From IMG/VR virus record IMGVR_UViG_3300032007_000039: a stretch of DNA of 64,000 bases; one strand, given 5' to 3'. The translations under genes and the position numbers were made by a program. Shown here one piece after another: positions 1-46,633 of this stretch (positions within the stretch are counted from its first letter, which is position 1; every line of letters begins with the position of its first letter). The DNA is from an uncultured virus (IMG/VR IMGVR_UViG_3300032007_000039). Taxonomy: Duplodnaviria; Heunggongvirae; Uroviricota; Caudoviricetes. Below the pieces are notes generated by a model, which had not been told where the DNA came from, did no database searches, and saw nothing but the letters and a program-made list of their open reading frames with translations.

Positions 1-3
1 TTT

Positions 4-459
4 CTATATCCCAAATTCAATTATTATATCTTTTTGTATATCTTTCTTAATTCTGTTATATTTTGATAAATAATTTGCTAATTCTATAGTTGCTCTTTTT
101 AAATAAAATTGATATTCATCATCTGTGTACCATCCAATATATTCCATATCATTAAATAATGTTTTTATGTCACATTCTCCATACATGAAATTTAATGGTA
201 TGAAGCTTATTTGTAATTCACTTATATCTGATTGTTTTTCTTTGAAATATATTTTTTTATTATAAATTTCAAAATCATATTGATTTTTTTTGCCTTTAAA
301 GTATAGATTAATAGTTATTTGCAAATTCCAAAATTCACTTTGTATTTTATACCATACAGTTTTCATTTTTATACTCCATATATCTTTACTAACTGCGTAT
401 AAACCATTTGTTGTTTTCATAAATTTGGTGATATATTTTTTTCTTCTACGAAATCTCAA
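4..459 (-). CDS. hypothetical protein, C-terminal G-hydrophobic group (ends EFGI)
   Basis: ORF track; start codon uncertain. Confidence 0.7.
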   Translation of the reverse strand: MRFRRRKKYITKFMKTTNGLYAVSKDIWSIKMKTVWYKIQSEFWNLQITINLYFKGKKNQYDFEIYNKKIYFKEKQSDISELQISFIPLNFMYGECDIKTLFNDMEYIGWYTDDEYQFYLKRATIELANYLSKYNRIKKDIQKDIIIEFGI

Positions 460-530
460 TTCATAACGTCTCGTTCATACATGGTTTCTAGTTCATTACA
501 TTCATCCATATATAATTCTTTAACCATAAT

Positions 531-884
531 TTACATTCCATTCATTAATATTTGACTTTCTTTTACTCTTTTGAATAAAATCCTGTTATATTTAAAAAAT
601 GGGTCATAATAATCGGCATAAATATCTTTACTTTCCATTTGTATATAGAATTTTTTATTATTACGATATAATTCTTGAATTAATTTCTGCGTAGCAATAA
701 TATATGCAGGTGTAATATCATCATATTTTAATACTATATGAATGAATTTATCATATTTGTTTTTAATGAATGTCATCATTTTAAAATTTTTATTTTCTTT
801 TGTATCGTTATTGACAATATAATTGATTTTATATTTTTTTACTGTATCTCCTATTTTAGTTGACTGTAATTTTATATCTAACAT
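531..884 (-). CDS. hypothetical protein (ends MNGM)
   Basis: ORF 531..974; start moved to ATG 884 after a purine-rich RBS and a TTGACA promoter. Confidence 0.7.
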   Translation of the reverse strand: MLDIKLQSTKIGDTVKKYKINYIVNNDTKENKNFKMMTFIKNKYDKFIHIVLKYDDITPAYIIATQKLIQELYRNNKKFYIQMESKDIYADYYDPFFKYNRILFKRVKESQILMNGM

Positions 885-995
885 TTCTCTCTCTCCTATT
901 ACATTAATTATATCATTTTTTGTCAACAATTTCAAGTATTTTTTGATTACTTTTTGTATATATGAAAAGGACACCTAATCATGGAGGTGTCCTTT

Positions 996-1349
996 TCATA
1001 TTCCATTACTATATACCCAAAATTCTTTTATCTCTCTTTTTAAATCTTTTTTCATATCAGAAAAATCTTTTAATATCTTATTCATTCGTTCTTCTTTTTT
1101 ATACCATATCGTTTGATATGTTTTTAAATATTTAATGCAATTTATATCCTCTATAACATATCCCAAACTATCTTCTCCATATCGAAATCCAAATTCTATT
1201 CCACAATTTTCTTTTCTGATACTAACAACCTTGTTTTGTGAAAATCGTAACCATAAAAATATACCGTTTTTATTCCATATTTTATAACTTTTATAATTAG
1301 GAACATATTTATTTAAATAATTGGTACAAGTAAGTTCATATCCCATCAA
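996..1349 (-). CDS. hypothetical protein (ends SNGI)
   Basis: ORF track; followed by hairpin terminator at ~968-995. Confidence 0.7.
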   Translation of the reverse strand: MMGYELTCTNYLNKYVPNYKSYKIWNKNGIFLWLRFSQNKVVSIRKENCGIEFGFRYGEDSLGYVIEDINCIKYLKTYQTIWYKKEERMNKILKDFSDMKKDLKREIKEFWVYSNGI

Positions 1350-1704
1350 AGACTATCATCCCTTTTTTTATTGATTCAATATATTCTTTATATCCATGTA
1401 ATCCTATTTGTTTTTCATACCTTAATAAGTTGTCATGATAGAATTGTTTGATTATTCCATTTATGTGATATATTTTGCTTATTAAAATGATATTTGCTAT
1501 ATGAAAATAATCCCATTCTTATATATAAGACTTTTTTGTCTTTTTGATTATAATCTATCGTATAATTTTGAATCCACCAATTTAATTCATATCTTTTTCT
1601 GGTTTTTATTAAATTTATTCTTAGTATACCATCATTTATATTAATTATTCTGTACTATTCAGGACGAATTACTTTTAAATGCTCATTGCGTGATATTTTT
1701 ATTT

Positions 1705-2079
1705 TCATAATCCATTTACTCTCGTATACATATCTTTGCAATGATTATGGAATAGTTCTATATTGCTACGAATGATATTACACCATTCATTTCTTTTTTC
1801 TTTTATTCCTCTTTTAAAACAATCATTTAAATGAATACAATTATCCCTCGTTTCAATGGAAAATTTGTACCCATCTATTCCATCTATTACATCTATTCTT
1901 ATATCAAATATCTGTAAAAAATTATTGTGAAAATAAAAGTATCCACTCCTATCTAATATTTTATATGTGATTGTCATTTTTATTTCATTATCTATTAGAT
2001 AAAAGTTTTTATACCATATTTTTTTTGATAGATAATCGTTGACGGGTTTTTTGCTATTCTTTTTTAGTTCTATTTCCAT
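1705..2079 (-). CDS. hypothetical protein (ends VNGL)
   Basis: ORF track, AAGGTG RBS. Confidence 0.75.
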   Translation of the reverse strand: MEIELKKNSKKPVNDYLSKKIWYKNFYLIDNEIKMTITYKILDRSGYFYFHNNFLQIFDIRIDVIDGIDGYKFSIETRDNCIHLNDCFKRGIKEKRNEWCNIIRSNIELFHNHCKDMYTRVNGL

Positions 2080-2136
2080 GCCATTTCACCTTACGATATA
2101 TTTGCTACGTTTTAATATTTCTATATTAGAAAAAAA

Positions 2137-2451
2137 TTATAAACCACTTGTGTATACAATTAAATTTCCTAGAACATCAAGAGTTAAATATTTTCTGATG
2201 TATTGCGTTTGCTCTTTGTAGCCTACCAAAGTGTAAATTTTATACCCTTCATCTATCCGTAAGAAAGTGCTCTTGTTAAAAATCTCTTTTTCTTCGGTTT
2301 TATCAACTATCAAATAAAATTTTATTTCTAGGATATTTTGCAAGAAACTGCTTTTACCCGAATGGATTACAATTTTTAGTTTCCCTATATCTGTATCAAT
2401 ATAAATTTCACTTCGATAAAGCGTTCCTTCTTTCTGCATTAATTTATTCAT
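2137..2451 (-). CDS. hypothetical protein (ends TSGL)
   Basis: ORF track, AGGAG RBS, TTGACA promoter at ~2490. Confidence 0.75.
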   Translation of the reverse strand: MNKLMQKEGTLYRSEIYIDTDIGKLKIVIHSGKSSFLQNILEIKFYLIVDKTEEKEIFNKSTFLRIDEGYKIYTLVGYKEQTQYIRKYLTLDVLGNLIVYTSGL

Positions 2452-2643
2452 TCCCCTTCACTCCTTTATATATACATATTATCACAATTTGTCAATATTT
2501 TCAAGTAAAAAATTGAATAGTAAAACCCTTATCAATTAGATAAGGGTTTTTGTTTGCCTATATGTAATGTTTAAAGGTAATTTATTGTAAAATGTTTTAT
2601 ATTCCTATTTGCTCATTGATGATAGCGTTTAATTTATCTTGGT

Positions 2644-2973
2644 TTAAAAATTGTAAAATGTTTTGTATGTTTTTTCTATATCTTGTTCCTTTGTTCCGTA
2701 TATCTGTTTATTTACTAATCGTAAATAGTCAAATTCTATATTATTATAATTATATATATATCTAATATAGCTAAATTGACAGAACTTTGTACCTTCTATC
2801 GTAATAGTTATGTATACTTTGTAATTGAGTACAAAGATACATAAGGTTATATGGTAGTAATATTCTTTTGTTCTATATTCATATTCTCTAAATTTGGTTA
2901 TATTATTTATTTTATTACTTGAATTATTCCATGACTTCTTAAATTCTATTTTATATGTTTTATATTGCTCCAT
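2644..2973 (-). CDS. hypothetical protein
   Basis: ORF track, AAAGGA RBS; 3' end overlaps a copy of the 14-bp motif. Confidence 0.65.
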   Translation of the reverse strand: MEQYKTYKIEFKKSWNNSSNKINNITKFREYEYRTKEYYYHITLCIFVLNYKVYITITIEGTKFCQFSYIRYIYNYNNIEFDYLRLVNKQIYGTKEQDIEKTYKTFYNF

Positions 2974-3493
2974 TTTTACTTTCCTTTTTGGTATCTATTG
3001 TATATTTTCTCATAATTTATGTATAAATTTAACTTTTTGTCGGGAATTAAAATAATTTTTTGTATATTTATGCAACATTTAGTCTAAATCCTTATTTTTC
3101 AACGTTTTTGTTTTTAGATTAACTTTTTCCTATATATATAATAAAAAATTCTTAGCTCAATGTAAGTTTTTATCCGTAAAATTGTATTTTTACTGACTAT
3201 ATATTATAAAAATGTGATTTTTACCTGTATCTTTATAAGATTTTTGTGAAAATAATACTATTTTTGTAATGTTTTGGTAATTCATGCGCGTGCGCCCATA
3301 TATTTTATTGGTTATTTGATGATTTGTTGATGAATTTAGCAATTTACTAATAGAATGAGTTGTTCATTGGCTTAATTAGTAATATTGTTCATCTAAATCA
3401 AGAATTAATTAGCATAAATTAGTGTAAATTTTTCGTTGTTGAAAAAATTTTGGGGCGAAATGCGCGGTATGATTATATTTATTTTTTCATTGG

Positions 3494-3585
3494 TACTTTT
3501 TTACATAATTTTTACATTGAAATATAAATTATTTATTTTTACGTAGTATACTTTTTTACATAATTTTTACATTGAAATATAAATA
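3494..3585. repeat. two direct repeats of ~37 bp (TACTTTTTTACATAATTTTTACATTGAAATATAAAT)
   Basis: seen at ~3494 and ~3549; partial third copy at ~3611. Confidence 0.85.
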
Positions 3586-3692
3586 ATGTATTTTTATATT
3601 GATTTATTTCACATTGAAATATGAATGAAGTATGGTTTTAATTTAACTGTTTTATTGTACCATTTAAATTATTTAATTTCATATTTATTTGG

Positions 3693-3762
3693 TATAATTG
3701 GAAAATATGTTATAATTGGAAAATATGTTATAATTGGAAAATATGTTATAATTGGGAAAATA
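3693..3762. repeat. 18-bp tandem repeat TATAATTGGAAAATATGT, about 3.8 copies
   Basis: direct reading. Confidence 0.95.
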
Positions 3763-4262
3763 AAGATTGTTTATGTTTATGTTAATTTCTTCTTCACATA
3801 CTTCATATACATTATATAAAATTTATATCTTTATCCTAGATTTATTTATCGAAAACATATCTTGTTTGATACATCTGCATGAAGATGACTTTTATTTTGA
3901 AGAATAATTTTTTTAGTTACCATTTTTCTTTATATTACACTTTTTCTTGAAAACATTTTTATAAGGTTTATTTATTTTATTATGTATGCTTTTTTGATAT
4001 AAATTTGAGTTATTTTATTGACACTTTGGTATAGATTACGTTTTCATCGTTGAAAATACTGAACAATTTTGACAGGGAATTTTTCTTAAAGATTTTTTCC
4101 GTTTTATTGGTATACAAGGATTATTTATGAATAATAAAAATACACGTTCATTTTAACGTGTATAATTTATATTTATCTTTAGTGTAAATATAATTGATGA
4201 ATTTTATTTTCTTTATTTTCTAAAAGATTATATATATATATTTGTTCATAAATTATATATAT

Positions 4263-4724
4263 TTATAATCCTTCTTCAGAAATTAATATATAGCAATAAT
4301 CATTAATCTGTTGAATAAATGATTTAATCTGATTAAGGTCATTTTCTGATAAATGTTCTTTTTTATTAGTAGGGATAGATTGTAAAAATTGATATTGTAA
4401 AGTATCTAAAAGTGTATTATTATTTTCGATTTGGTAATAATTAACTCCGTGCAAAATATATCGTAATGAAGTAGATTGAGATTTTTGTTGTTCTATGAAT
4501 TGAAATGCTTGTTTTTCATCTAGGATAATTTGCAAAGGCATAAATTGAGTTGGATTTTTGAAAAAAAATTTTTTAATAGAAATGTTATATAATGGTTTAT
4601 TATTGTTATGTTTGACCGATTGAATATTTTTATAATCAGTAATCAGATTGATATTCAGATAGTAATGGCAAAAGAAAATATGTAATCTATAATTTGGTGA
4701 TGATGATGGATAATAAGCGTGCAT
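4263..4724 (-). CDS. hypothetical protein (ends EEGL)
   Basis: ORF track, GAGG RBS. Confidence 0.7.
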   Translation of the reverse strand: MHAYYPSSSPNYRLHIFFCHYYLNINLITDYKNIQSVKHNNNKPLYNISIKKFFFKNPTQFMPLQIILDEKQAFQFIEQQKSQSTSLRYILHGVNYYQIENNNTLLDTLQYQFLQSIPTNKKEHLSENDLNQIKSFIQQINDYCYILISEEGL

Positions 4725-4753
4725 GATTAATAAACCTCATTTATGATAAATCA

Positions 4754-5194
4754 TTATAAACCTCTCACATAGGAAAGATTATTTCTAGTTTTATGAAAGA
4801 TAATAGGTAATGTTTGCAGTAAATTTTGTTTTAGATTTGTATAAATATAGTTATCTTGAACATTTGTTATAATACGTTTGGATAGTGAATTAAAATTATG
4901 ATTAAATTTCATAGGAACATAGTCCACATAAATTAATTCATTTTGATTGTTTAAATGTGTAATATAAATATCTAATGATGGGTTAGGAATAGTTAAGGTA
5001 ATGTATAAATCGGATTGATTATTTACTACATTCAATTGTTTTTTATGTTGAAAATACCCTTGTTTCAATGCAAAATCATTGGCAGTAAAACAAAGATTAT
5101 AAGTAAGTAAATATGTATTTTCATTTATTGATGGATAAGATAATGGGAAAGAAAAAGGATATGTATAATCGAATTGACTATGAATATAAGTCAT
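4754..5194 (-). CDS. hypothetical protein (ends VRGL)
   Basis: ORF 4754..5275; start moved to ATG 5194 after AAGGTG. Confidence 0.7.
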   Translation of the reverse strand: MTYIHSQFDYTYPFSFPLSYPSINENTYLLTYNLCFTANDFALKQGYFQHKKQLNVVNNQSDLYITLTIPNPSLDIYITHLNNQNELIYVDYVPMKFNHNFNSLSKRIITNVQDNYIYTNLKQNLLQTLPIIFHKTRNNLSYVRGL

Positions 5195-5210
5195 TGGTAG
5201 TTCACCTTCT

Positions 5211-5870
5211 TTACATACCATCATATAATGCGTGGGTAGACTGCATGATATGAATAATATATTTGTTGTAGACATTAAGATAACTTTTTAATAAAAGATA
5301 ACTTTTTAATAAATGTTCAATAAAAGTATCTGTTGTATACTTATAAATAATATTATTGATAAAAAGATTTGTTTTATGGTTTGGCATATTCGGGAAAAAT
5401 TTTTTCAATTGTTTTGTAATATGATTGTAATCTAGGTCAATACAAAAGGTGATTTGGCATAAATTATCAGTATTACCTGTTTTTTTATTTGTGGATTGAA
5501 TAGTTGTATTCACATCAAAATATTTTCTTAATTTATGAAAATTATAAAATTGTAACTGATTTTTTACATGATAAAAAGAAAACTTTAATGTAATACTATT
5601 TTGATAAAGGCTTTTATTGTTATGATTTTTATGGTAATTAGCAGAATTGATATTATCATATATAATTATCTGATAATCTTCATAATACGTATTATCGGAT
5701 ATATGAAAATTTTGTTTCATATATAAACTTGTATTTGTCTGCTCATTAGTCATAATATAATGATAACATAACAGTTCTTTTGCCACGGACGGTTTATGAT
5801 AATGATATAACTGTTGTCGATAAATAGATAACTGTTTATCTTTAAAGTATGAATTGTATTCAGGTATCAT
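5211..5870 (-). CDS. hypothetical protein (ends YDGM)
   Basis: ORF track, tightly packed operon. Confidence 0.75.
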   Translation of the reverse strand: MIPEYNSYFKDKQLSIYRQQLYHYHKPSVAKELLCYHYIMTNEQTNTSLYMKQNFHISDNTYYEDYQIIIYDNINSANYHKNHNNKSLYQNSITLKFSFYHVKNQLQFYNFHKLRKYFDVNTTIQSTNKKTGNTDNLCQITFCIDLDYNHITKQLKKFFPNMPNHKTNLFINNIIYKYTTDTFIEHLLKSYLLLKSYLNVYNKYIIHIMQSTHALYDGM

Positions 5871-5872
5871 TT

Positions 5873-6478
5873 TTATACTCCGAAATAATGAATGTATTCT
5901 ACTTCTGTAAAGGGGTTGATATATTCATACATGAGTTTATTTATGTTTTTTAAAATACGATTATATTTTTTTTGATTGAGTCTTGTTTTGAATATTTCCA
6001 AATGTTCATCAGGGACAAAATACAATGATAGATTTCTTGATGTTTGTTGATAAGCAGATACCATATTCTTAATCAAAAAATGGTTTAAATAAGTATAATT
6101 TTTAGAACATAGTTCTTTACTTGCAAAAAAAGAATAATTATAATTATTGCTATAGCGTTGTGCAGTCAATTCGTCGGTAATATCCATAAATTCTATACTC
6201 ACAAAAACCTGTTTTTTATTTGTAATCTCAAATTCTATTTTGAAACGAAATATATCATAATTGAATGTGCATTTGCATGATATACGATTTAGCAGATTAA
6301 CAAAAATAGGGGCTTGTTTTATTTGTTTTGGAATAGGAATATCATATACAATTGTTACATTGGAAAGATTTTTGTATTGATTGATATGATAAATACTAGA
6401 ATAGAACGCACGATTGACGCGCTTTTTTTCTTTATTAATGGGAAATTTTGGCAGGATTGCGTTTTTCATATATTTCAC
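5873..6478 (-). CDS. hypothetical protein (ends YFGV)
   Basis: ORF track, TTGACA promoter at ~6525. Confidence 0.75.
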   Translation of the reverse strand: MKYMKNAILPKFPINKEKKRVNRAFYSSIYHINQYKNLSNVTIVYDIPIPKQIKQAPIFVNLLNRISCKCTFNYDIFRFKIEFEITNKKQVFVSIEFMDITDELTAQRYSNNYNYSFFASKELCSKNYTYLNHFLIKNMVSAYQQTSRNLSLYFVPDEHLEIFKTRLNQKKYNRILKNINKLMYEYINPFTEVEYIHYFGV

Positions 6479-6595
6479 CTTCTTATATATTATAGGTAAA
6501 GTATATCATATTTTGTTATTATTTGTCAATATTTTTAAATATATTTTTTAAATAAAAATCCTCTATCTATGATAGAGGATTTAAAATTCATTGGT

Positions 6596-6958
6596 TTAAT
6601 CTCCGTCCCAAATCCCATCAGGACGCATTTCTGCCATTGTTTTCAGTTGGATAAGTGCGCGTTTTGCGTTCCCTTCTGTAGCATCCCAATAATTATTAGA
6701 TACATCATCATTTAGATTGTTGATAGCATTGGTTAGAATTGGAATAGACTGTGCGCCTGTTTTTCCATAAATGGAACGGATACCTTTTTCCCCTAGTACA
6801 TTATCCTTGTAATAATGCTTACTGTAATTGTACGTTACATTTAGGTACAGTTCTGTCGTTCCATTGATTGCATACATCCCCCCACGCATAAAGTGAGGAT
6901 GGTCTACATTCAATACTTCATGCGTAATCGGGTCTGTCAGTCTAATATCATAACTCAT
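6596..6958 (-). CDS. phage hypothetical protein (NVTYNYS...YWDATEGNA motifs)
   Basis: ORF, GGGGAG RBS, terminator at ~6555-6583. Confidence 0.85.
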   Translation of the reverse strand: MSYDIRLTDPITHEVLNVDHPHFMRGGMYAINGTTELYLNVTYNYSKHYYKDNVLGEKGIRSIYGKTGAQSIPILTNAINNLNDDVSNNYWDATEGNAKRALIQLKTMAEMRPDGIWDGD

Positions 6959-7008: not shown

Positions 7009-7099
7009 TATTTGTCAATATGGAATATCCAGATATTTGTCAATATGTAATATCAAGATATTTGTCAATATGTAATATCAAGATATTTGTCAATATGTA
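7009..7099. repeat. 25-bp tandem repeat (ATATTTGTCAATATGTAATATCAAG), about 3.5 copies, each with a minus-strand TTGACA
   Basis: direct reading. Confidence 0.9.
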
Positions 7100-18229: not shown

Positions 18230-18727
18230 TTAATCGTCAATATCAGGAATTTCTGATGTATCCTCTCCCATTTCGTCAAGTTCGTCAATCAAATCATCAT
18301 ATTCGCTTGACAGTTCATTAAGTTCATCGTTAAAATCGTCGAAAGAACTATAGTTTTCACGATTTTCCATGAGATAATCGTTATCAATATCGTCACCGAA
18401 TTGGTTAATCACATCCCACGCGCAACCGCTATGTGCGTTACCATATCCATCAAACCAAAAATACTCGTCACCTGTCCGAAAGTCATTTCCGATACGGTCA
18501 ACGATTTCCGTAGGCGAAAGACCTTCCATAAGTTCATCAAATGAACTCATGTATTCAGGATGTTCATAGGAATTGTCGTTACAATAATCAATGATAATTC
18601 CAATCTTGATGTCATCGTCAAGGTTATCGAAAACATCATTAATATTTTCGATTTTGTTCTGATACTCATTACGAATTTCTTCAAGGCGGTTCATGATTTC
18701 TTCTTTCGACATTTTAATCATCTCCAT
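18230..18727 (-). CDS. highly acidic protein with FWFDGYGN motif, candidate DNA mimic
   Basis: D/E-rich composition; function inferred. Confidence 0.75.
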   Translation of the reverse strand: MEMIKMSKEEIMNRLEEIRNEYQNKIENINDVFDNLDDDIKIGIIIDYCNDNSYEHPEYMSSFDELMEGLSPTEIVDRIGNDFRTGDEYFWFDGYGNAHSGCAWDVINQFGDDIDNDYLMENRENYSSFDDFNDELNELSSEYDDLIDELDEMGEDTSEIPDIDD

Positions 18728-35846: not shown

Positions 35847-36251
35847 ATGTTTGGTTTAATTCCTTTTGAAAACAAAGAAATGGATAGTATTTTTAATGAT
35901 GGATTTTTTGATGGATTTAAGTTTCCACAAGTACATCAAGATATGAAATGTGACGTAGAAGATACAGAAAAGTCATATATTGTTACTGCGGAGGTTGCAG
36001 GTTTTGACAAGAATGATATTAAAGTATCAACTAAGGATGACGTTCTGACAATTGCAGTTGAACACAAGGAAGATACAAAGGATGATAAGAAGTATCTTTG
36101 TCACGAAAGAAGTTATAGCAAGGTGTCACGTAGCTTTAGACTTCCTAACATGAACAAGCAGGATATTAAAGCTAATTTGAAAGATGGTATTTTAACCATT
36201 ACTGTTAATAAGGACGAAAAACAGGAAGATAAGTATATCGCTATTGAATAA
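35847..36251 (+). CDS. small heat-shock protein (Hsp20/alpha-crystallin)
   Basis: DVEDTEKSY...AGFDKNDI...ERSY..VSRSFRLP...IKANLKDGILTITV. Confidence 0.95.
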   Translation: MFGLIPFENKEMDSIFNDGFFDGFKFPQVHQDMKCDVEDTEKSYIVTAEVAGFDKNDIKVSTKDDVLTIAVEHKEDTKDDKKYLCHERSYSKVSRSFRLPNMNKQDIKANLKDGILTITVNKDEKQEDKYIAIE

Positions 36252-39688: not shown

Positions 39689-40132
39689 TTACAGTTCAAC
39701 AATATCCAATTTATGTGATTTATCTGCTCTCATACCACAATGAACACCACAAGTCTTTTTATTTTTCAAATTACCTGTATATACGTCAATAATATTACCA
39801 CAATCACACTTGCAACGCATTTTTGCATTATGGAACTTACCACTATCATCATAGTATGCTTTTTGTACAATCGAAATGACAGTTAACGTACCGAATCTAC
39901 GTCCAATCCATTTGCTCTCATATGCCTTTTCTTTACAGTCTTTACACATGGTTACGTTACCACTTTTTAGATACTGCAAGGGTACAATAATATGATTTCC
40001 ACACTCGCACTCGCATTCATACATAGCAAGTGTTTTACCATGATTTCCAATTTCCTTGTTCTCTACATATCGAACAATAGTCAGTTTACCAAATTTATGA
40101 CCAACAAAACTATCTACGTCAAATGTTCTCAT
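39689..40132 (-). CDS. protein with two G.RFG.LTV...C.C.CGN Zn-binding repeats of the type found in HNH/AP2 proteins; no nuclease domain seen
   Basis: motif repeats. Confidence 0.75.
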   Translation of the reverse strand: MRTFDVDSFVGHKFGKLTIVRYVENKEIGNHGKTLAMYECECECGNHIIVPLQYLKSGNVTMCKDCKEKAYESKWIGRRFGTLTVISIVQKAYYDDSGKFHNAKMRCKCDCGNIIDVYTGNLKNKKTCGVHCGMRADKSHKLDIVEL

Positions 40133-40149
40133 TTCAAAAACTCCTTTTC

Positions 40150-40398
40150 TTAAATATCCTCTAGCGAAACTCCATCTTCAGTCATAGATATTTTTGTTAA
40201 AATCCATGACTTATCAATTACCATTGTTGTATCATCTTTACCTGTATAAACCATAATTATTGGTTCATTACCAAGATTAATGATACTTTTCACAGTAACA
40301 ATCTGGTCTGCTAAATATTTTCGTTTTAGTTCTTCTTCTTTAGGCAAATCATTAATTGGTTTAATGACTACAGAATCGCCAATTTGCAAATTCATCAT
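40150..40398 (-). CDS. hypothetical protein
   Basis: AAGGAG RBS. Confidence 0.8.
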   Translation of the reverse strand: MMNLQIGDSVVIKPINDLPKEEELKRKYLADQIVTVKSIINLGNEPIIMVYTGKDDTTMVIDKSWILTKISMTEDGVSLEDI

Positions 40399-40562
40399 AA
40401 AAGTCTCCTTATTGTGATTTAATCTTTCTTAAAAACATTAACCAGCGTAGGTAATCTTTATTTTGTCTCTTTGTTTTATTATATATCATAGATTTTTATT
40501 TGTCAAGACTTTTTGTATTTTTTTGTTTTTGAAATAAAAGCAGGAATTTCACCTGCTTTTAT

Positions 40563-40775
40563 TTAATCACGTTCACTATGATATTTTACCTCATCATAAA
40601 TTCCTTCAAGTGTAATGCGTAACCTACGTTCTGTATTGGCAAAAGCAATATCATAACGTTCATCTGTTGGAAGATTAATGCGAACAACCACATAATCTCC
40701 TGCAATTTTCGTTACAAGATAATCATTGTTTTTATCCATAGCATTGATTTTTTCAAGCAAATCGAAAATCTCCAT
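40563..40775 (-). CDS. hypothetical protein
   Basis: cassette. Confidence 0.85.
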   Translation of the reverse strand: MEIFDLLEKINAMDKNNDYLVTKIAGDYVVVRINLPTDERYDIAFANTERRLRITLEGIYDEVKYHSERD

Positions 40776-40904
40776 TTGTAACTACCTCCATTAACACTTA
40801 AATTCTTGTTTCTATGATTATATAATAACACATGATACAATATTTGTCAAGAGCTTTTGTATATTTTGTTTTTGAAATAAAAGCAGGAATTTCACCTGCT
40901 TTTT

Positions 40905-41470
40905 TAATATGCGTTTTTATGTTCACTACAAGACTGCACTTCATTATAAATTCCTTCAAGCATAACGTCAAAATTACATATAAATAAGAATAAATATGTA
41001 TAATTTTGTTTAGAATTCTAAATTCAAAGTATCGTTAATGTACTCACCTTAATCTTTTTTCAAGATACGGTATTTTGTTTAATTAATTCTATGTATGTTG
41101 TTTTGAATTCTTCGTGGGTTTTGTAAATTGGAATGAATTTATTTGGTTCAATTTCCTGATGACAGGATTTTTTCAAAACGTTTGAGAGAATCCTGTTTTT
41201 TTTAGTTTCAATATTATTTCACCTCCATCCTGTATTAAATATATGTCAAATTAAACATTTTATGATATATTTGTACAAAAAGTTGCAAAATAATTACTTG
41301 TAATATATAATACGTAACATGTTTTCCATATCCACAAAATTATTACAAATTTTGTCTGTTTCAAGATTTATACGCCTAAGTACATAATGTCATCCTGCAA
41401 ATTTCGTTACAAGATAATCATTGTTTTTATCCATAGCAACTAACTTTTCAAGTAAATCAAAAATCACCAT
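40905..41470 (-). pseudogene. disrupted duplicate of 40563..40775
   Basis: 5' half at ~41340-41470 (near-identical DNA, in-frame TGA) and 3' end plus terminator at ~40860-40960, separated by unrelated DNA. Confidence 0.7.
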
Positions 41471-41595
41471 TTGCAACTACCACAACAAAAATATTTATCA
41501 ACTATGTACAGTATATCAAATAATTTTCTATATGTCAATAAAAATTGCTATCATAAAACATTTTACAATAAAAAATAGAGGATATATATCCTCTA

Positions 41596-42825
41596 TCACG
41601 TTAAATCTTTTGTTTTTTGTAAATATGTTTCTATTTCGTTCATAGTTATATATCTACCTGCTTTTGTTTTTATCAAACTAATAGGCATATGATTTTTCAA
41701 ATTAAACATATATCCTTGATATTCTTTTGGTACTAATTTTTGTACTGACTTCCCATAATCAGATTTATTATTTATATTCTTCACTATATCATAATATCTA
41801 TATATCATATCACGTTTTATACGCATATATGTATATATTTTTTCTGCTTTTTCATTCAAAACAGTATGATATACAGTAGGAACTTTAGCCAACAAATCAT
41901 CATAATAATCATCTGCTATAGCTTTAATAATTGTTTTACTAGATGTTTCATCTGATAGTATATGACTTAATTCCAAATAATCAGTACACTTTAGTTTATA
42001 TCTATGATTATCAATTGTGATAACCCAACCCTCTTTATCCGAACCTTTGTAAGTATCACGATTACACATAACTTCATTGAATGATTTTGTATCTATTTGT
42101 GTCATAGGAATATGATACTTATCAGAAAATTCTTTTTTAATATACTTATATCCATATTCTATTCCATTTGTGACATTACGTACACCAATCAGATAAATAC
42201 CCTGTTGTGATTTATCATAGATAACTACATGCCTATCATTCAATGAAATATATTCAAAAATGAATGTTTTATCAGGATTATTCATAATCATTTGTTTGTG
42301 ATTATATGATAGCATAGTTTCTGCTTCTGCCAATCTAAAATTTTGTTCTTTATCTAATGACCCTGTACCACCTAACACAAAATGATTATCATAATATCTA
42401 ACAGACAAAAGTGAACCATCTAGTTTATTTGTTATTTCTACATCTTTTGCATTTTTCAAATATGATTGAATTTTATCAATATATGTTTCTTCAATCTCGC
42501 CTATATTGAAAAATTTTCTAAATGGACATAATACAATTGTATCTTTTTCTACATCTATTGTAAGACCACGCATTTCACGATAAATAGAATTTTCATTACG
42601 ATATATATCATTGTCTCCACCTTTAATAAGTGAATATTTGAATAAATTATATGTTCCATACACAATGATATTTACGCATTTCAAAAAGTTATTATATTTA
42701 TCTGTATTTAAATAGATACACATATCTTCTACACTATATGTATCTAGTTTATCTATTTGCTTTTTGTTCATATACTGATATTTTATCTTCATAACATAGT
42801 TATATGCTATATTCCAATCAAACAT
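41596..42825 (-). CDS. T4 Rnl1-like RNA ligase
   Basis: PFRKFFNIGE, motif I KLDGS, FEY, EGWV, KLK. Confidence 0.85.
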   Translation of the reverse strand: MFDWNIAYNYVMKIKYQYMNKKQIDKLDTYSVEDMCIYLNTDKYNNFLKCVNIIVYGTYNLFKYSLIKGGDNDIYRNENSIYREMRGLTIDVEKDTIVLCPFRKFFNIGEIEETYIDKIQSYLKNAKDVEITNKLDGSLLSVRYYDNHFVLGGTGSLDKEQNFRLAEAETMLSYNHKQMIMNNPDKTFIFEYISLNDRHVVIYDKSQQGIYLIGVRNVTNGIEYGYKYIKKEFSDKYHIPMTQIDTKSFNEVMCNRDTYKGSDKEGWVITIDNHRYKLKCTDYLELSHILSDETSSKTIIKAIADDYYDDLLAKVPTVYHTVLNEKAEKIYTYMRIKRDMIYRYYDIVKNINNKSDYGKSVQKLVPKEYQGYMFNLKNHMPISLIKTKAGRYITMNEIETYLQKTKDLT

Positions 42826-42987
42826 ATTGTATCACCACCATATACAATCATATCATTTATAGAAATATTTGTCAATCAAAATTTGTAAAATGTTTTATAC
42901 CAAATCAAATTCCAAATCATAAAACATTTTACAAATATCATAAAATTAAAAAGGAAAGGTTTCCCCTTCCTTGTACTTTATCAACGC

Positions 42988-43497
42988 TCATAGTGTACTT
43001 TCGTGTACTTTCAGATTGTATTTCTCAATCAGATTATCTGCTTTGTGTTTCCAAATTTCATGCAGATTATTTTCATAGATATAGATTGCAAGCGTCCCCT
43101 TAATCCCTTCATCATCTGCGCCCTTGCAAAGTGCAATCAACTTTTCTGCTTCATCAACAGACACAAGCAGGTGATTTGCAAGTGCTTTTACGTCATTATT
43201 TTTAATGAAGTATGCACCATTTTCCACCTCATACATTGGGCAACCGTCCACGTCACGAAGATGAAATTCAAATAAATCTGCAATAGCAGGGAACTTGCGT
43301 TCCGTATCATGAAGGCAAGCACCAAAGGAAACAGGATTAGCATAACGCTTATCACGTTTACCTTTTCTCGTGGCTTTCCATGTTTCATGCGTCACGGAAA
43401 AATACGGCTTCTGCTTTCCAATCTGATTAAGCTCTCCAAAAACAGTAATCAGATACCCATTGGAAATTTTGTTTGCGACCTCGTAATTGTTGAACAT
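42988..43497 (-). CDS. hypothetical protein
   Basis: cassette. Confidence 0.85.
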   Translation of the reverse strand: MFNNYEVANKISNGYLITVFGELNQIGKQKPYFSVTHETWKATRKGKRDKRYANPVSFGACLHDTERKFPAIADLFEFHLRDVDGCPMYEVENGAYFIKNNDVKALANHLLVSVDEAEKLIALCKGADDEGIKGTLAIYIYENNLHEIWKHKADNLIEKYNLKVHESTL

Positions 43498-43788
43498 TGT
43501 AATTACTTCCTTTCATACGTGAACCTTATCTCTATGGTTATATATTACCACATCTTAGATACTTTGTCAAGAACTTTTTTATTTTTTCTTGGTTACTGTA
43601 TCTATTGCCTTTCGACACTTATATAGTAACACATATCAATATATTTGTCAATAGTTTTTGTATATTTTTTTTGAAAAGATTTTATTCGTATAAAACATTT
43701 TACAAAAATCAATATACACAAAATTGTAAAATGTTTTATACCAAATATTGTTTATCAAAAGAAGGAAGAACTATTTCTTCCTTCTTGC

Positions 43789-44163
43789 TTATTTTGTTTT
43801 AGACAAATTATCCCAAAAACTTTGTGACGGTTTAGCAGATGAAAGAATATAAATATCCAACCCTTCATTATTTCCAACACATTCAAATCCACTAGATTTA
43901 TATAAATTAACTGCTACTGTATTGTCAGGTGCTACACACAAAGCATTTGCTCCTTTTTTCAAGCAATAATCAAATAATGTCCTGCCTAATCCTTGACCTC
44001 TAAATTGTGGTTCAATTTCTAAATTACCTACCCATGTAAGATTATCAGATGAATATTTGTATAAATCTACTGTACCTAAATAAGTAGCCCCGTTATACAT
44101 ATTAATATTCGTTTTATTTCCTTCTTGTTCTTCTTCAAATTTGATATTAGCTAAACGTTTCAT
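43789..44163 (-). CDS. GNAT-family acetyltransferase
   Basis: IEPQFRGQGLGRTL...N..AVNLYKSSGF. Confidence 0.9.
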   Translation of the reverse strand: MKRLANIKFEEEQEGNKTNINMYNGATYLGTVDLYKYSSDNLTWVGNLEIEPQFRGQGLGRTLFDYCLKKGANALCVAPDNTVAVNLYKSSGFECVGNNEGLDIYILSSAKPSQSFWDNLSKTK

Positions 44164-44253
44164 AATATTATCTCCTATATAAAACATTTTACATTATTAT
44201 TATATCGGTATCTACCACTATTTATTATATTTATAGAAGGGTGGAATACAATA

Positions 44254-44655
44254 ATGGATAATCCGTATGAAAAATTACAGCCTAAATCATTTACTCTATT
44301 GGCAGAACAACAAATAAATGATATTAATCATAAAGGGATTATGGGTAAAAATCTATTTATCAAAACATGTATAAATAATATGTATGATTACATAGATGAA
44401 TTTTATTTTGATTTGTTTACAAATCACATAGACATATTTTATTTTATGACGGTTTACGATAATGGCAACGAAAATATTATTGACAAAAAATTAAGAGACA
44501 TTATAACTAACACATTCATACAAAGTTATTTGCATATTGTCAACAATAATTTATTAGATAAAAATATATTCAATCAGTCACTTATAAATAAAACAATCAA
44601 ACAAGTTTTTGATAACCCTAGAAAAGTAAATATGCTTTATAAAAAGAACAATTAA
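44254..44655 (+). CDS. hypothetical protein
   Basis: ORF track. Confidence 0.65.
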   Translation: MDNPYEKLQPKSFTLLAEQQINDINHKGIMGKNLFIKTCINNMYDYIDEFYFDLFTNHIDIFYFMTVYDNGNENIIDKKLRDIITNTFIQSYLHIVNNNLLDKNIFNQSLINKTIKQVFDNPRKVNMLYKKNN

Positions 44656-44744
44656 ACCTTCTAAAATCGTTTGTATCACGTTTTAATCAACAAACAGATA
44701 TAGTTATATACGTTACATAATTTAACTATGCTACAATCGAAATT

Positions 44745-44782
44745 TGACATCCTCCAACGACTGAAGTCGTTGGATTCCTAAG
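44745..44782. mobile_element. IS200/IS605-like end hairpin (remnant)
   Basis: CATCCTCCAACGACTGAAGTCGTTGGATTCC. Confidence 0.5.
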
Positions 44783-44819
44783 TGACTAACGTTTCTTGCT
44801 ACCTCCACGGCAGTCTTAA

Positions 44820-45410
44820 TCATAAAGAAGCCCCTGCCTTTTTAAACTGGAAAAAAAGAATTCCACCTAAAGCATTTCCTAATACATTAGTTGCTAAGAA
44901 AGGAATATTAAAAGTTCCACACGCTGACATAAAGAAAAAGTTTGCTACACAGTGTTCAAACCCACAAAATACAAAGACCGTAACGCAGAAAATTACAAGC
45001 AAAGAATTCTTTTGAGTTTTCCACTCATTGACAGCTAAGAAAATAAGAATATTACAAAAGATAGCTTTGCAAAATACCATCAATAAAGTTTCGGACAATT
45101 TATTTTGTAATATAGTCGAAACATTGCTTTCAATTCCACAACCAAGGAAAACTAAAGCACAAAGACCAATTCCAATAAAATTACCGAATAAAACCGTTGC
45201 ATTATCCTTCAAACTTTTTAACGTAGGTGTAGAACTGCATACAAAACCTGTAAATAATTTAAAAGCATGAACACATACAGCTAAAAGACCTACTGAGAAA
45301 AGGACAGCCCCAATTAATTTATTAGGAGACACAGCAAGAGAAATACACCCTATACCAATGCTCCAACCTGCCAAAAAAGAAGAATATATATAAGATTTAA
45401 ATTCACTCAT
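44820..45410 (-). CDS. formate/nitrite transporter (FNT) family channel
   Basis: multiple TM helices; LFTG, GNFIG, AIFCNILI, GFEHCVAN, GNALGG. Confidence 0.9.
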   Translation of the reverse strand: MSEFKSYIYSSFLAGWSIGIGCISLAVSPNKLIGAVLFSVGLLAVCVHAFKLFTGFVCSSTPTLKSLKDNATVLFGNFIGIGLCALVFLGCGIESNVSTILQNKLSETLLMVFCKAIFCNILIFLAVNEWKTQKNSLLVIFCVTVFVFCGFEHCVANFFFMSACGTFNIPFLATNVLGNALGGILFFQFKKAGASL

Positions 45411-45434
45411 GCCAATCACTCTTTCTAACAAATA

Positions 45435-45935
45435 TTAACCTTCTAATATCTTATCAAAAAGGCAAACTTTTAATGGAATTTGAGAATAATATTCCCAATC
45501 ATTCATCAGTCTATCAAATTCATCTGCCCATTCAGAATATTTACGAATAATCAATAAAACAGGAACATTCTCTCGACAACTTTCCATAACAAATTCTTTT
45601 AAATCATCAATATCAACAAATTTATTCAAAATAGTCTCTGCGTTTCCACTAAAGAAAGTGCCATCATCTTTCATTACATAGAAATCATCATCATAAGAAA
45701 AATGCTCATTATCTTTAGAGTCAATAACTGGTCTAAAAATCTCTGCTTCTGCCTTAGAATAAATTTTCATCATATTTTCGTCTTTTTCAGCTTGAATATT
45801 ATAAAGCTCTACAACAGCTTCTTTAGGAAAAGAATCAAATACTTCAGAAAACTTATCTGTATGAGCATCAATTTGTTTTGCTAAATTATTGGAGTAGTCA
45901 ATTTCTTTTTTGTATTTCTCTTTTAAAAAGCCCAT
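45435..45935 (-). CDS. hypothetical protein
   Basis: ORF track. Confidence 0.8.
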   Translation of the reverse strand: MGFLKEKYKKEIDYSNNLAKQIDAHTDKFSEVFDSFPKEAVVELYNIQAEKDENMMKIYSKAEAEIFRPVIDSKDNEHFSYDDDFYVMKDDGTFFSGNAETILNKFVDIDDLKEFVMESCRENVPVLLIIRKYSEWADEFDRLMNDWEYYSQIPLKVCLFDKILEG

Positions 45936-45951
45936 ATTTCAACTTCCTTTC

Positions 45952-46434
45952 TTAACGAAAATATTCAACATAATTATCAATAATATATTTTGTATCTTTA
46001 TAAATCTCTTTATCAAACTTATTCACTAAAACAGTTGGTTCATTATCAGAAGGATTTTCCTTCCAATAATCAATGTCTATCCAATCCTCAAATTCTCCCC
46101 AAAAAGCATTATAATCTTTTGTTTTACCTCTGATATCTATAAAATTATCTTCTTCATCTATACAAAAAGAATGAATAAGGCTTTTTTCGTATGAATACAC
46201 ATTTACAATTTTATATCCAAACTGTTTATGTAATCTTAATGCAAAAATATTGCAAAATCCATGAAGAAAATCATACAGACTTAATTTATTTTCAGAGTTT
46301 GGAATAAAACAAGGTTCTTTATCATTGTTAATAACAATAATATCTTCCAAAAAAGAAAAATCTGTATTTTTATTATCATTAAATATTACTGCCCCTTCAC
46401 GATAAAAATCTTGTAATTCCATATCTTTGAACAT
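45952..46434 (-). CDS. hypothetical protein (HGFCNIFA..LH...HSFC...DIRG)
   Basis: cassette. Confidence 0.8.
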   Translation of the reverse strand: MFKDMELQDFYREGAVIFNDNKNTDFSFLEDIIVINNDKEPCFIPNSENKLSLYDFLHGFCNIFALRLHKQFGYKIVNVYSYEKSLIHSFCIDEEDNFIDIRGKTKDYNAFWGEFEDWIDIDYWKENPSDNEPTVLVNKFDKEIYKDTKYIIDNYVEYFR

Positions 46435-46633
46435 TGTAACTCATTCCTTTCAATACTGTTTATCTCTATGGTTATAGAATATCACATATATAGCTTTTTG
46501 TAAAGATGTTTTTTATATATTTTTGAATTACAAACTTTTGAATAAAACATTTTACAAAAGTACATTAAACAAAAATGCAAAATGTTTTATTTTTATATAT
46601 CAAAATAGGCAGGATATTTCACCTGCCTATTTT

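Follow-up and report, generated by a model that had tools for sequence, protein, structure and literature searches.

Why should a run of neighbouring phage genes, whose products show little likeness to one another, all stop on a glycine followed by a single aliphatic residue? We asked this question of a window of 64,000 nt, the whole stretch of DNA analysed here, which corresponds to positions 158472-222471 of a 281,186-base genome (G000). This genome is that of a jumbo myovirus of the phage-G-like kind, a relative of Bacillus phage G, and the host is probably an anaerobic low-GC Gram-positive.

A Gly-hydrophobic end marks a long gene array

The first-pass annotation had listed ten consecutive minus-strand ORFs at window positions 4-6478, nine of which were read as ending EFGI, MNGM, SNGI, VNGL, TSGL, EEGL, VRGL, YDGM and YFGV, and these nine ends were confirmed. 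All on the minus strand, they belong to 4..459 (151 aa from a TTG start, ...DIIIEFGI-stop; the true start may be further in), 531..974 (147 aa, ...SQILMNGM-stop), 996..1349 (117 aa, ...EFWVYSNGI-stop), 1705..2079 (124 aa, ...MYTRVNGL-stop, with the downstream gene 355 nt off), 2137..2451 (104 aa, ...LIVYTSGL-stop, with a TTGACA-type promoter-like site upstream), 4263..4724 (153 aa, ...CYILISEEGL-stop, in one ortholog cluster that is 97% identical), 4754..5275 (173 aa, ...NLSYVRGL-stop), 5211..5870 (219 aa as the longest ORF, ...THALYDGM-stop) and 5873..6478 (201 aa, ...EYIHYFGV-stop), which opens the rightmost transcription unit. The 65-nt overlap of 5211..5870 with the following gene makes a start further in probable. 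The annotated end of the tenth ORF (2644-2973, ...FYNF-stop) is indeed not Gly-hydrophobic, but this ORF is no true exception: it reads as part of a frameshifted member (2597..2973, minus strand), in which the adjoining frame 2597-2707 reaches ...LNAIINEQIGI-stop. A remnant at 1336..1518 (minus strand) has no usable start; its stop-to-stop frame is 60 codons long and closes with ...KKGMIVFDGI-stop. The array's right border is marked by an intrinsic-terminator-like hairpin (6556..6582, minus strand; 12 pairs plus a T run), which closes the upstream unit, next to a σ70/σA-type promoter (6500..6529, minus strand; TTGACA, 18 nt, TATACT, extended TG).

The first 6.5 kb of the window hold only the right end of the array, which spans 138.4-165.0 kb of the genome (27 kb). 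It contains 41 minus-strand ORFs 60-230 aa long, of which 32 have the end G-[LIMV]-stop (binomial P 5e-55, with the G[LIMV] dipeptide frequency in the proteome, 1.09%, as background). Three decayed copies come in addition to the intact ones, which number at least 32, giving a total of about 35 in this phage. Among stop-to-stop frames of at least 25 aa in the array region, 35/191 on the minus strand end G[LIMV] versus 0/300 on the plus strand, and 4/439 ORFs excluded from the crude gene set do so. Outside the array the count was 6/339 ORFs versus 3.7 expected (P 0.17). The two further ORFs that had been added to the group, at 33250 (FFGL) and 37206 (YSGL), are therefore within chance; the only paralog that could be detected for the 33250 ORF, at window 18230-18727, has an end that is not Gly-hydrophobic. 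Thus, the Gly-hydrophobic end is real and the enrichment, found in the array, is larger than first noted.

The end is retained in related phages

Four relatives, all of them partial contigs, keep the end as well: we counted six copies in L059 (all orthologs of G000 members), 14 among the 20 small ORFs of G002/L029, nine of nine in L060 and one in L061. In four lineages the genes share strand, size and a position beside a ligase gene and a gene for a 737-aa protein. Over the five records, not one of the 62 array copies counted lacks the end, and near variants, including the ends G-F, G-A and G-N, retain Gly at −2. It had been considered that orthologs might drop the terminal pair; instead, orthologs at 30-94% identity keep it. 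Those of 996..1349 (73-94% identity) end SNGI, SNGM or SNGV, six G000/L059 ortholog pairs (53-82% identity) all end Gly-hydrophobic, and the cross-lineage pair G000 142856/L060 2771 (30% identity over 133 aa, E 1e-6) ends HGI and QGV. As negative controls, 5/691 ORFs end G[LIMV] in phage G, from which the family is absent, and 0/49 do so in a 38-kb stretch of the relative G003.

Lineage-specific expansions of genes in tandem were described for jumbo phages in 2017 (PMC5646251), and phage G carries a zinc-ribbon expansion of ∼35 copies (Iyer et al. 2021, PMC7824862). The present array resembles the latter in phage lineage, in scale (about 35 copies), in its head-to-tail copies on a single strand and in encoding small proteins with a conserved C-terminal part, but it is a different family without counterpart in phage G. 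Furthermore, the copies here are not 'very similar': neither BLAST nor HMM nor hhalign detects most of the pairs. In the 36-copy tandem family of phage G, 3-16 residues follow the conserved C-terminal motif (nine lengths among 34 copies), while here the conserved part reaches the exact last residue.

The genes very probably form one hyper-diverged family

The encoded proteins (65-219 aa) abound in Tyr, Ile, Lys and Asn and are basic (median pI 8.9, versus 6.4 in a control set of 143 proteins); they have no Pfam, PHROG or NCBIfam match. The first-pass annotation saw no similarity between their bodies, which holds for most pairs. BLASTP or iterated HMMs connect only two pairs and one trio among the members, and hhalign between six subfamilies gave probabilities all under 1%. 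Two further body-level links were nevertheless found, the G000 142856/L060 2771 pair and a link between G000 142856 and 157756, and a leave-one-out HMM with the tail removed placed 7/27 members within the top 5% of 114 controls, a weak signal. The common part is not a pair of residues but a C-terminal module some 12 or more residues long. Over 56 members, position −11 is hydrophobic in 75%, −10 is Lys or Arg in 28/56, −7 is hydrophobic in 86%, −6 in 77% and −3 in only 46%; Gly at −2 is invariant and the last residue is L, I, M or V. Between −8 and −5, strand-favouring residues (Tyr, Ile, Val and Thr) are frequent. Identity is 77% over the last 12 residues versus 65% over the body (P 0.011).

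The genes are real, as judged from the existence of orthologs and from a dN/dS of 0.11-0.42 (0.08-0.13 for five of six neighbours and 0.30 for the sixth, a 120-aa ORF). From the common array position, strand, size, basic pI, C-terminal module, few body links and weak HMM signal, we infer that they very probably constitute a single hyper-diverged, tandemly amplified, lineage-specific and fast-evolving family and not a set of unrelated proteins. A single fold for all members is suggested by context and by weak signals, as the searches for body homology linked only few of them.

The array occupies part of the early half of the genome and is divided into units, every one of which carries its own terminator and a strong promoter of the form TTGACA-TGnTATAAT. 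Strict sites of this kind, that at 6500..6529 included, number 42 in the genome versus 0.35 in shuffles; 41 of them lie right of 140 kb, six inside the array and one within the structural half, 0-138 kb. When the first 8 kb were scanned for promoters in general, the 74 sites obtained did not exceed the 81 in shuffles. The promoter consensus suggests that the family is likely to be expressed early.

Selection acts on the peptide

Could the shared end reflect a nucleotide signal? Among the 32 copies the Gly codons are GGA (16), GGT (9), GGG (4) and GGC (3), the last residue uses eight codons and all three stop codons occur. The gap to the next gene ranges from −65 to +920 nt (at least 50 nt in 11/32), and a search for a DNA repeat at the 3′ ends of the genes found none. 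Because neither the codons nor the stop codons nor the spacing to the following gene are constant, selection on the peptide, proposed earlier from the differing terminal codons, is borne out. One could imagine the pattern to arise from AT-rich composition, from gene conversion, from a terminator or from the ribosome-binding site or start codon of the gene that follows, since the gap is at most 29 nt in 21/32 copies, with some genes overlapping or abutting their neighbour, and GGA is over-used (half of the copies versus about a third of genome-wide Gly codons). However, the end persists in the 11 copies with gaps of 50-920 nt, the plus-strand frames and non-gene ORFs speak against chance, and the phage G and G003 controls, which are AT-rich, speak against composition. 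Given this codon variety, the wide gaps, the missing 3′ repeat and the near-empty controls, we rejected a nucleotide-level or chance origin, whose probability is negligible.

A structural cap or a free end that is read

We then asked whether the end merely closes a fold. The AlphaFold model of the 996-1349 product (pLDDT 69, pTM 0.65) contains six β strands followed by two C-terminal helices, and the final helix is predicted to span residues 100-115, with Gly116-Ile117 as its last turn or cap. The only other model, of the 4263..4724 product, is too poor to use (pLDDT 46); it places the last eight residues outside a helix with low confidence. Over the final 18 residues, the hydrophobic moment has its maximum at 80-100 degrees, as in a helix. 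A Schellman-type helix C-cap has Gly at C′ and hydrophobic residues at C″ and C3, and the family, with a hydrophobic residue at −6, Gly at −2 and a hydrophobic residue at −1 at the end of a modelled helix, resembles it. It is possible, if doubtful, that this is the full explanation: all members would have one diverged fold, with Gly left-handed at C′ and the terminal side chain folded back on the hydrophobic one a turn before it, and there would be no outside reader. The modelled helix, which stops right before Gly116-Ile117 and packs against the protein's sheet, the frequent hydrophobic −6 that such a cap requires, the helix-like moment, the conservation of a hydrophobic module instead of a bare dipeptide and an empty partner search among the phage proteins scanned all agree with it. 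Of the counter-reading named at the outset, one diverged fold with a buried tail, the first half holds in so far as a single tandemly duplicated family is most likely; as to burial, the lone usable model has the tail as a helix cap.

However, a Schellman cap is an internal motif after which the chain may continue, while here a stop codon invariably comes next. A cap does not need the chain to stop, yet no member extends, whereas the phage G family tolerates nine tail lengths behind a conserved C-terminal helix. The length after Gly is one residue in every member seen, the G-F, G-A and G-N variants included. Furthermore, in one lineage (L060; nine genes on one contig) the last residue is Val in 8/9 copies, encoded by GTT, GTA and GTG, compared to 2/32 in G000 (Fisher 4e-6; binomial 1.4e-4 against a Val share of 0.26), while close G000 orthologs interchange I, M and V freely at this position. 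A lineage-wide Val across paralogs with unrecognisably different bodies is hard to explain by separate cores. The strand-favouring residues at −8 to −5 and the non-helical, low-confidence end of the second model also speak against a cap. The absence of any extension past Gly+1 and the Val of one lineage favour a shared reader over a purely internal cap.

Two other uses of a free end were considered. The end might send the proteins, which are small and basic, into the prohead for injection with the DNA, much as an N-terminal capsid targeting sequence does for T4 internal proteins, or C-terminal cargo peptides do for encapsulins. T4-type internal proteins carry a capsid targeting sequence (Rao and Black 2010, PMC3012670); they are likewise clustered, small, basic and mutually dissimilar with one short terminal peptide in common, and IPI* is a small α/β protein like our one usable model. 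But the T4 signal is N-terminal and removed by the prohead protease, whereas here it is C-terminal and the protein's final end, and T4 has a handful of internal proteins where this phage has about 35 with early-class promoters. The small HK97-type capsid protein (281 aa) would suit such a role, but it is 80% identical to that of phage G, which lacks the family. Moreover, about 35 cargo species would far exceed any known case, an [LI]-x-E-type N-terminal signal occurs in 3/32 members versus 34/143 controls, and the early σA-type promoters fit badly with loading into virions, which we consider improbable. Slightly less probable still is a degron, by which a host protease specific for C-termini would recognise the hydrophobic end and rapidly clear these early proteins, limiting host-takeover factors to a brief period of action. 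C-terminal degrons include ssrA-type LAA ends and those of tail-specific proteases; an early gene class and a free aliphatic last residue without extension match such recognition. Yet we know of no bacterial C-degron class with an invariant penultimate Gly, the conserved helix and hydrophobic run upstream would be unnecessary, and a degron is easily lost, while this end is kept in every copy counted and its variants retain the Gly.

We return to a free end that is read by a shared, hypothetical partner in addition to any internal cap, a tentative reading to which we assign a probability of roughly 0.45. Short peptides dock into pockets in the IGF/IGL loops of ClpX/ClpA, the HbYX tails of proteasome activators and PDZ ligands, and E. 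coli Pol IV has a clamp-binding C-terminus (QLVLGL) that also ends Gly-Leu. The family end, a short hydrophobic element that here has a free carboxylate, could similarly plug into the pocket of a hub. Two specific options of the first-pass annotation, IGF-type ClpP-docking loops and proteasome-activator (HbYX) tails, fall away, as the defining residues are absent: −3 is too rarely hydrophobic for a hydrophobic-Gly-hydrophobic loop and there is no AAA+ domain, and the penultimate residue is Gly instead of the Tyr of HbYX. Unlike Pol IV, the proteins lack a conserved upstream Gln and a polymerase domain. Its broader proposal of a docking or sorting signal gains from the constant length and the lineage-wide Val, while no hub was found: a search for PDZ, ClpP or similar readers gave none among 150 further phage proteins (Pfam) or 91 (PHROGs).

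In such a system the variable bodies would do the work, engaging a range of host or defence targets in early infection, and the constant end would be the common handle. The modelled helix and hydrophobic run would pack on the protein's own β sheet, and the Gly-aliphatic-COOH end would be recognised by one shared host or phage partner. With a single reader the chain would never extend past its end, and a whole lineage could switch its last residue to Val. The shared exact end thus points to a common use across ∼35 proteins of unlike sequence.

A tandem array of proteins with a Gly-hydrophobic end

The ten consecutive minus-strand ORFs at window 4-6478 are as the first-pass annotation had read them: nine end in EFGI, MNGM, SNGI, VNGL, TSGL, EEGL, VRGL, YDGM and YFGV directly before the stop. 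The cluster is real and robust, and it is larger than that reading had it, as the window holds only the right-hand end of an array that spans 138.4-165.0 kb of the phage genome (a single contig of 281,186 bases with 28% G+C, of which the window is bases 158472-222471). Of the 41 minus-strand ORFs of 60-230 aa in the array, 32 have Gly as the penultimate residue and Leu, Ile, Met or Val as the last (G[LIMV]). Given a dipeptide frequency of 1.09% in the phage proteome, the binomial P is 5e-55. Among stop-to-stop frames of at least 25 codons in the array region, the ending was found in 35 of 191 on the minus strand and in 0 of 300 on the plus strand. The three additional frames are decayed copies, which brings the array to 32 intact and three decayed copies within 27 kb, on the minus strand throughout. 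The single exception among the ten window ORFs is a frameshifted member, because an alternative frame at the 3' end of ORF 2644-2973 (window 2597-2707) ends in ...IINEQIGI.

Outside the array the ending occurs in 6 of 339 ORFs (3.7 expected, P 0.17). The ORFs at window 33250 and 37206, which had been counted with the pattern, therefore need no special explanation; 33250 also has a paralog without the ending. Two adjacent plus-strand ORFs of ~100 aa at genome 245635-246263 (locus L003, 635-1263) end in ...QLAIYNGL and ...FFIYNFGL, and this tandem pair may represent true but dispersed members, far from the array. Within the array, an ORF-poor gap of 1.3 kb (window 2974-4262) contains two kinds of repeat, one of 18 nt (about four copies, 3687-3758) and one of 55 nt (two copies, 3494-3596). 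GC skew shifts from -0.30 (1-2000) to +0.28 (4001-6000) with the gene strand being minus on both sides, and the four larger members to the right of the gap (4263-6478) differ in composition, being rich in Gln, His, Thr and Ser.

The ending is selected as a peptide

The 32 copies span four Gly codons, eight last codons and three stop codons, which upholds the earlier proposal that selection acts on the peptide. The gap to the next start varies from -65 to +920 nt and is at least 50 nt in 11 copies. The only DNA repeats seen in the array are those of promoter modules and short tandem repeats between genes; none was found at gene 3' ends. Because of this diversity of codons, stops and gaps, and because of the repeat-free 3' ends, we rejected ribosome-binding sites, gene overlap and gene conversion as the origin of the ending; the chance that any DNA-level effect is its source is close to nil. 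The family genes are under purifying selection (dN/dS 0.11-0.42), yet they evolve faster than most of their neighbours, as five of six neighbouring genes have values of 0.08-0.13 and the sixth (a 120-aa ORF) has 0.30. In nine protein pairs, two of which share one protein, identity was 77% over the last 12 residues versus 65% over the rest (P 0.011).

Related phages keep the ending

Relatives were collected by a capsid-protein search, which yielded virus contigs, and by a scan for a conserved 737-aa neighbour, which yielded three further metagenome contigs. Besides the phage under study, the family is present in contigs L059, G002 and L060, and L061 has a single copy. L059 (737-aa neighbour 95% identical) carries orthologs of six left-hand members at 53-82% identity, all with the Gly-hydrophobic end and with one Met-to-Leu change. 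In L060 (neighbour 59% identical) all nine small ORFs of a consecutive series have the ending, and the neighbour accompanying the single copy in L061 is 54% identical. In G002 (locus L029), 14 of 20 small ORFs have the ending and another two end in G-A and G-N; one paralog of the same length has Ser replacing Gly. No BLAST similarity was found between these G002 ORFs and any member in the phage under study. Orthologs of the protein at window 996-1349 (73-94% identity) end in SNGI, SNGM and SNGV, and a cross-lineage pair with 30% identity ends in HGI and QGV. The idea of a docking end, when held against the outcomes that the first-pass annotation had itself named as fatal to it, survives in part: orthologs keep the ending, but the proteins are very probably one diverged family.

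As a control, Bacillus phage G has 5 of 691 ORFs that end in this way, without a cluster. In two related contigs, the ending was found in 0 of 49 ORFs over 38 kb (G003) and in no ORF over 36.5 kb around the ligase gene (G004). A profile of 32 C-terminal 38-mers (A2), run against five relatives, missed all 14 members in G002, and its two leads, in G003 and G004, were false or doubtful. Neither window 40001-48000 nor window 1-6500 had a blastn match ('distant' setting) among 50,697 phage records, and related-locus searches in viral contigs with window 996-1349, or with the 737-aa neighbour alone, gave nothing new. G004, from a relative with a genome of 504 kb, contains six tandem plus-strand ORFs (locus L027, 5244-9531), five of them 229-261 aa long; five near-identical tails of the ...Y[VIK]DNNKSxNI[YI][RF] type mark these as another tandem family with a fixed C-terminal motif.

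Members of the array are very probably one diverged family

The first-pass annotation took the proteins to be dissimilar. This premise holds up poorly: the bodies are indeed almost unrelated by sequence, but several signs point to one origin. BLASTP at 1e-3 among the 32 members linked two pairs and no others, iterated HMM searches within the proteome gathered three members (one trio) at most, and hhalign between six small subfamily alignments gave probabilities below 1%, with or without the last ten residues. No curated Pfam-A cut-off was reached by 36 proteins (best E 0.0015), PHROGs v4 returned two weak matches only (E 0.0055 and 0.0083), both to function-unknown families, and NCBIfam 20 matched 0 of 34 proteins. 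When 1.84 billion representatives were searched exhaustively with HMMER and a profile of window 996-1349, the sole matches were the profile's own cluster, a chimera and two repeat artefacts. The artefacts are repeat proteins of 5013 and 1549 aa that score 0.3-8.5 bits per repeat and owe their E-values to the summing of 24-40 repeats. We also set aside as ortholog evidence a 187-aa protein (P0005, on an 833-base contig) in which an unrelated N-terminus (PF04297, precomputed) is fused to a stretch 96% identical to the final 47 residues of the protein at window 996-1349. Such a fusion may be a chimera of assembly or else reflect a natural swap of the C-terminal module.

The signs of common origin are as follows. 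Tandem position, strand and size are common to the members, and their median pI is 8.9 versus 6.4 in 143 controls. Counting the last residue as -1, 56 members are hydrophobic at -11 in 75%, at -7 in 86% and at -6 in 77%, and 28 have Lys or Arg at -10; the shared C-terminal part extends well beyond two residues. With the last 12 residues removed, leave-one-out HMMs scored against 114 size-matched controls put 7 of 27 members among the top 5%; the median rank was 29 of 114 and eight of the 27 ranked 100 or lower, so the signal is weak and uneven. Two body-level links join distant copies. We consider it very probable that the members are one diverged family.

Predicted structure of the tail

An AlphaFold2 model of the protein at window 996-1349 (model 1), made from an alignment with three orthologs and 20 paralogs, has a pLDDT of 69 and a pTM of 0.65 and consists of six beta strands followed by two helices. 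The last helix (100-115) stands directly before Gly116-Ile117, with a pLDDT of 67-83 in the last blocks. In a Schellman helix C-cap, Gly comes right after the helix and positions C'' and C3 are hydrophobic; the modelled placement of Gly116-Ile117 is consistent with such a geometry. Over the last 18 residues the hydrophobic moment has its maximum at 80-100 degrees, as in a helix; positions -8 to -5, however, form a run of four mainly hydrophobic residues, rich in strand-favouring types. In a second model (window 4266-4724, 23 aligned rows; pLDDT 46), only two helices were modelled with confidence, and the eight C-terminal residues were left unplaced (pLDDT <50). Foldseek on the PDB with model 1 found nothing convincing (best E 0.1, to p32/gC1qR/MAM33 chains, TM 0.40), VIA-align wide reached at best Z 6.0, inside its stated noise band, and the best BFVD E was 0.11, leaving the fold unassigned. 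ESM Atlas look-alikes for the same protein scored 0.79 at best, under the lead threshold.

The phage and the timing of the array

PHROG and Pfam scans of the larger proteins identified sheath, portal, major head protein and a terminase with insertions, which makes this a contractile-tail jumbo phage; further genes encode an anaerobic ribonucleotide reductase, sugar and nucleotide modification, an M16 peptidase, a sigma factor and others. The major head protein is 80% identical to its Bacillus phage G counterpart, yet phage G homologs exist for no more than 58 of 388 ORFs, so the phage is a distant, smaller cousin of phage G. A low-GC Gram-positive anaerobe is the probable host. The terminase gene (1569 aa; locus L009, 13849-18555) gave profile matches in separated pieces only, as if interrupted by inserts. 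Two adjacent paralogous giant proteins of 1952 and 1940 aa (genome 6084-17780, locus L004) match transglycosylase/lytic tail protein families in one case and an endolysin family in the other. Eight radical SAM paralogs at genome 39.7-68.6 kb and 94.6 kb (loci L006, L007 and L009) have glycosyltransferases, a carbamoyltransferase, UDP-glucose dehydrogenase, an aminotransferase and a nucleotidyltransferase as neighbours, and this region is probably a DNA or virion modification pathway. A radical-SAM/RiPP-type modification of the conserved Gly was considered in view of this eight-member family and dropped, as no positional or co-occurrence link was seen.

Strict sigma-A-type promoters (TTGACA, 13-15 nt, TGnTAnAnT) numbered 42, compared to 0.35 in shuffles. 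Forty-one lie to the right of 140 kb, six of them within the array, and the genome is accordingly two-part, its left half with the structural and modification genes holding one strict site. Array intergenic regions contain a recurrent unit of a terminator hairpin, an A-rich stretch, TTGACAAA, an extended -10 box and a strong ribosome-binding site; the unit preceding ORF 5873-6478 has its terminator at window 6556-6582 and its promoter at 6500-6529, on the minus strand. From the consensus of these promoters and the repeated terminator/promoter units, we infer that the family would be early genes transcribed by the host polymerase. Three tandem 25-nt repeats at window 7009-7099 (locus L002, 8480-8570), each containing TTGACAAATA, lie within a 1.2-kb gap upstream of minus-strand ORF 6596-6958 and resemble a stack of -35 promoter boxes or of operator sites. 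The early region also holds host-like genes, namely those for an Hsp20/alpha-crystallin protein (window 35847-36248, plus strand), a formate/nitrite transporter-like protein (44820-45431, minus strand) and a piece of anaerobic ribonucleotide reductase with HNH endonuclease genes on either side (59550-60473, minus strand).

Comparison with known systems

Hydrophobic-Gly-hydrophobic tripeptides of the IGF/LGF type form the ClpP-docking loop of AAA+ unfoldases. The first-pass annotation had drawn this analogy, which the members do not bear out: position -3 is hydrophobic in just 46% of 56 members (38% in the phage under study), with F, N, V and Y about equally frequent, and a Pfam scan of 36 proteins turned up neither an AAA+ domain nor any other. 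The HbYX tails of proteasome activators, also suggested, have a penultimate Tyr preceded by a hydrophobic residue, whereas all 62 array copies from five records have a penultimate Gly (by the selection rule). T4-type internal proteins, which go into the virion and are injected, carry an N-terminal targeting peptide that ends in a prohead-protease site, [LI]-x-E. The array family lacks this feature, with [LI]xE in the first 20 residues of 3 of 32 members versus 34 of 143 controls, and no N-terminal residue is common to more than 22% of the 32 members at any position.

The closest likeness is to the tandem lineage-specific expansions of jumbo phages. In published work, phage G and 121Q have tandem expansions of more than 30 genes (Hua et al. 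2017, PMC5646251), phage G has a zinc-ribbon expansion of ~35 copies (Iyer et al. 2021, PMC7824862), and phage G array members have been named the 'tryptophan repeat gene family' (2025, PMC12484599). Like the expansions in phage G and 121Q, the array has tens of copies, head-to-tail on one strand and restricted to a lineage. Those expansions consist of 'very similar genes', whereas the copies here are not recognisably similar and far more diverged; it is a different family, and what is conserved in it is the very end of the chain. In phage G (NC_023719.1) we observed a 36-member family at 352.5-371.0 kb and scattered elsewhere, most copies being 180-225 aa. Its C-terminal ...WKENDRYLxKIL... 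motif is followed by 3-16 variable residues (nine lengths among 34 copies, counted past ...RYL...), whereas the array family stops exactly. We found no description of a family with a Gly-hydrophobic end in the literature on jumbo-phage tandem arrays with conserved C-termini, nor in the titles and abstracts of papers on Donellivirus; the family is undescribed, within a known kind of jumbo-phage feature.

What the end may be for

Our preferred reading, to which we give a probability of about 0.45, is that the family consists of early, fast-evolving binders in which the body varies and a handle stays constant. The variable body would be the binding part of each protein, and the free Gly-aliphatic end would be read by one partner common to the members. 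In every copy seen in the five records the stop falls one residue past Gly, also in the near-variants G-F, G-A and G-N. The phage G genome is AT-rich too and the tails of its 36-copy family vary, so composition alone does not trim tails. Moreover, the last residue is Val in 8 of 9 copies in L060 (encoded by GTT, GTA and GTG) versus 2 of 32 in the phage under study (Fisher 4e-6; binomial 1.4e-4 against a locus Val share of 0.26, for a single contig), while in the latter lineage Ile, Met and Val are swapped freely between close orthologs. A Val preference common to paralogs with unlike bodies suggests a shared factor outside the individual proteins. It counts against a shared reader that no partner of the end was found, that the tail is predicted to be helical in the one usable model and that the Val case comes from one contig. 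The end could instead be purely a structural helix cap, a somewhat less probable explanation: helix 100-115 of model 1 does end right before Gly116-Ile117 and the hydrophobic residue at -6 (77%) would fit, but no copy runs past the residue after Gly and the last residue is lineage-specific. A fixed stop after Gly together with a lineage-specific last residue goes beyond an ordinary helix cap. That the end is a virion-loading tag is improbable, since the promoter class suggests early expression; a degron seems marginally more improbable still, and all further readings together have a slightly smaller chance again.

An extension of the shared-reader proposal, unlikely in our estimate, is that the array is a phage-encoded library of ~35 interchangeable adaptors, all coupled to one machine by a Gly-aliphatic-COOH plug. 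Early in infection the variable beta-sheet bodies would each bind their own host or defence protein, the common machine would be a protease, unfoldase or clamp of the host, or else a partner encoded by the phage, and the Val switch of the L060 lineage would reflect co-evolution with that one pocket. If true, such a library would be the bacterial-virus counterpart of the F-box-type substrate-receptor families. On position alone, candidates for a co-evolving partner are the paralogous 488- and 448-aa proteins at genome 138817-141765 (locus L011, 12820-15765). Each has its own strong promoter and neither belongs to a known family; they lie inside the array in the phage under study, L059 and L060, with one homolog in G002, and their dN/dS is 0.08-0.09. 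Phylogenetic profiling against phage G is uninformative for finding a partner because so few ORFs have homologs there.

Jumbo phages give tens of kb to tandem families of unknown function, and the family described here takes up about a tenth of a 281-kb genome. Its sole invariant feature is a two-residue free end, which makes an unusually clean handle. If one partner reads this end, its discovery would assign a function to some 35 orphan genes at once and reveal a modular scheme by which a phage directs a variety of binders to a single machine. Should the end be a helix cap only, the family would illustrate the extent to which a fold can diverge and still retain one capping motif, and would caution against taking shared termini for signals.
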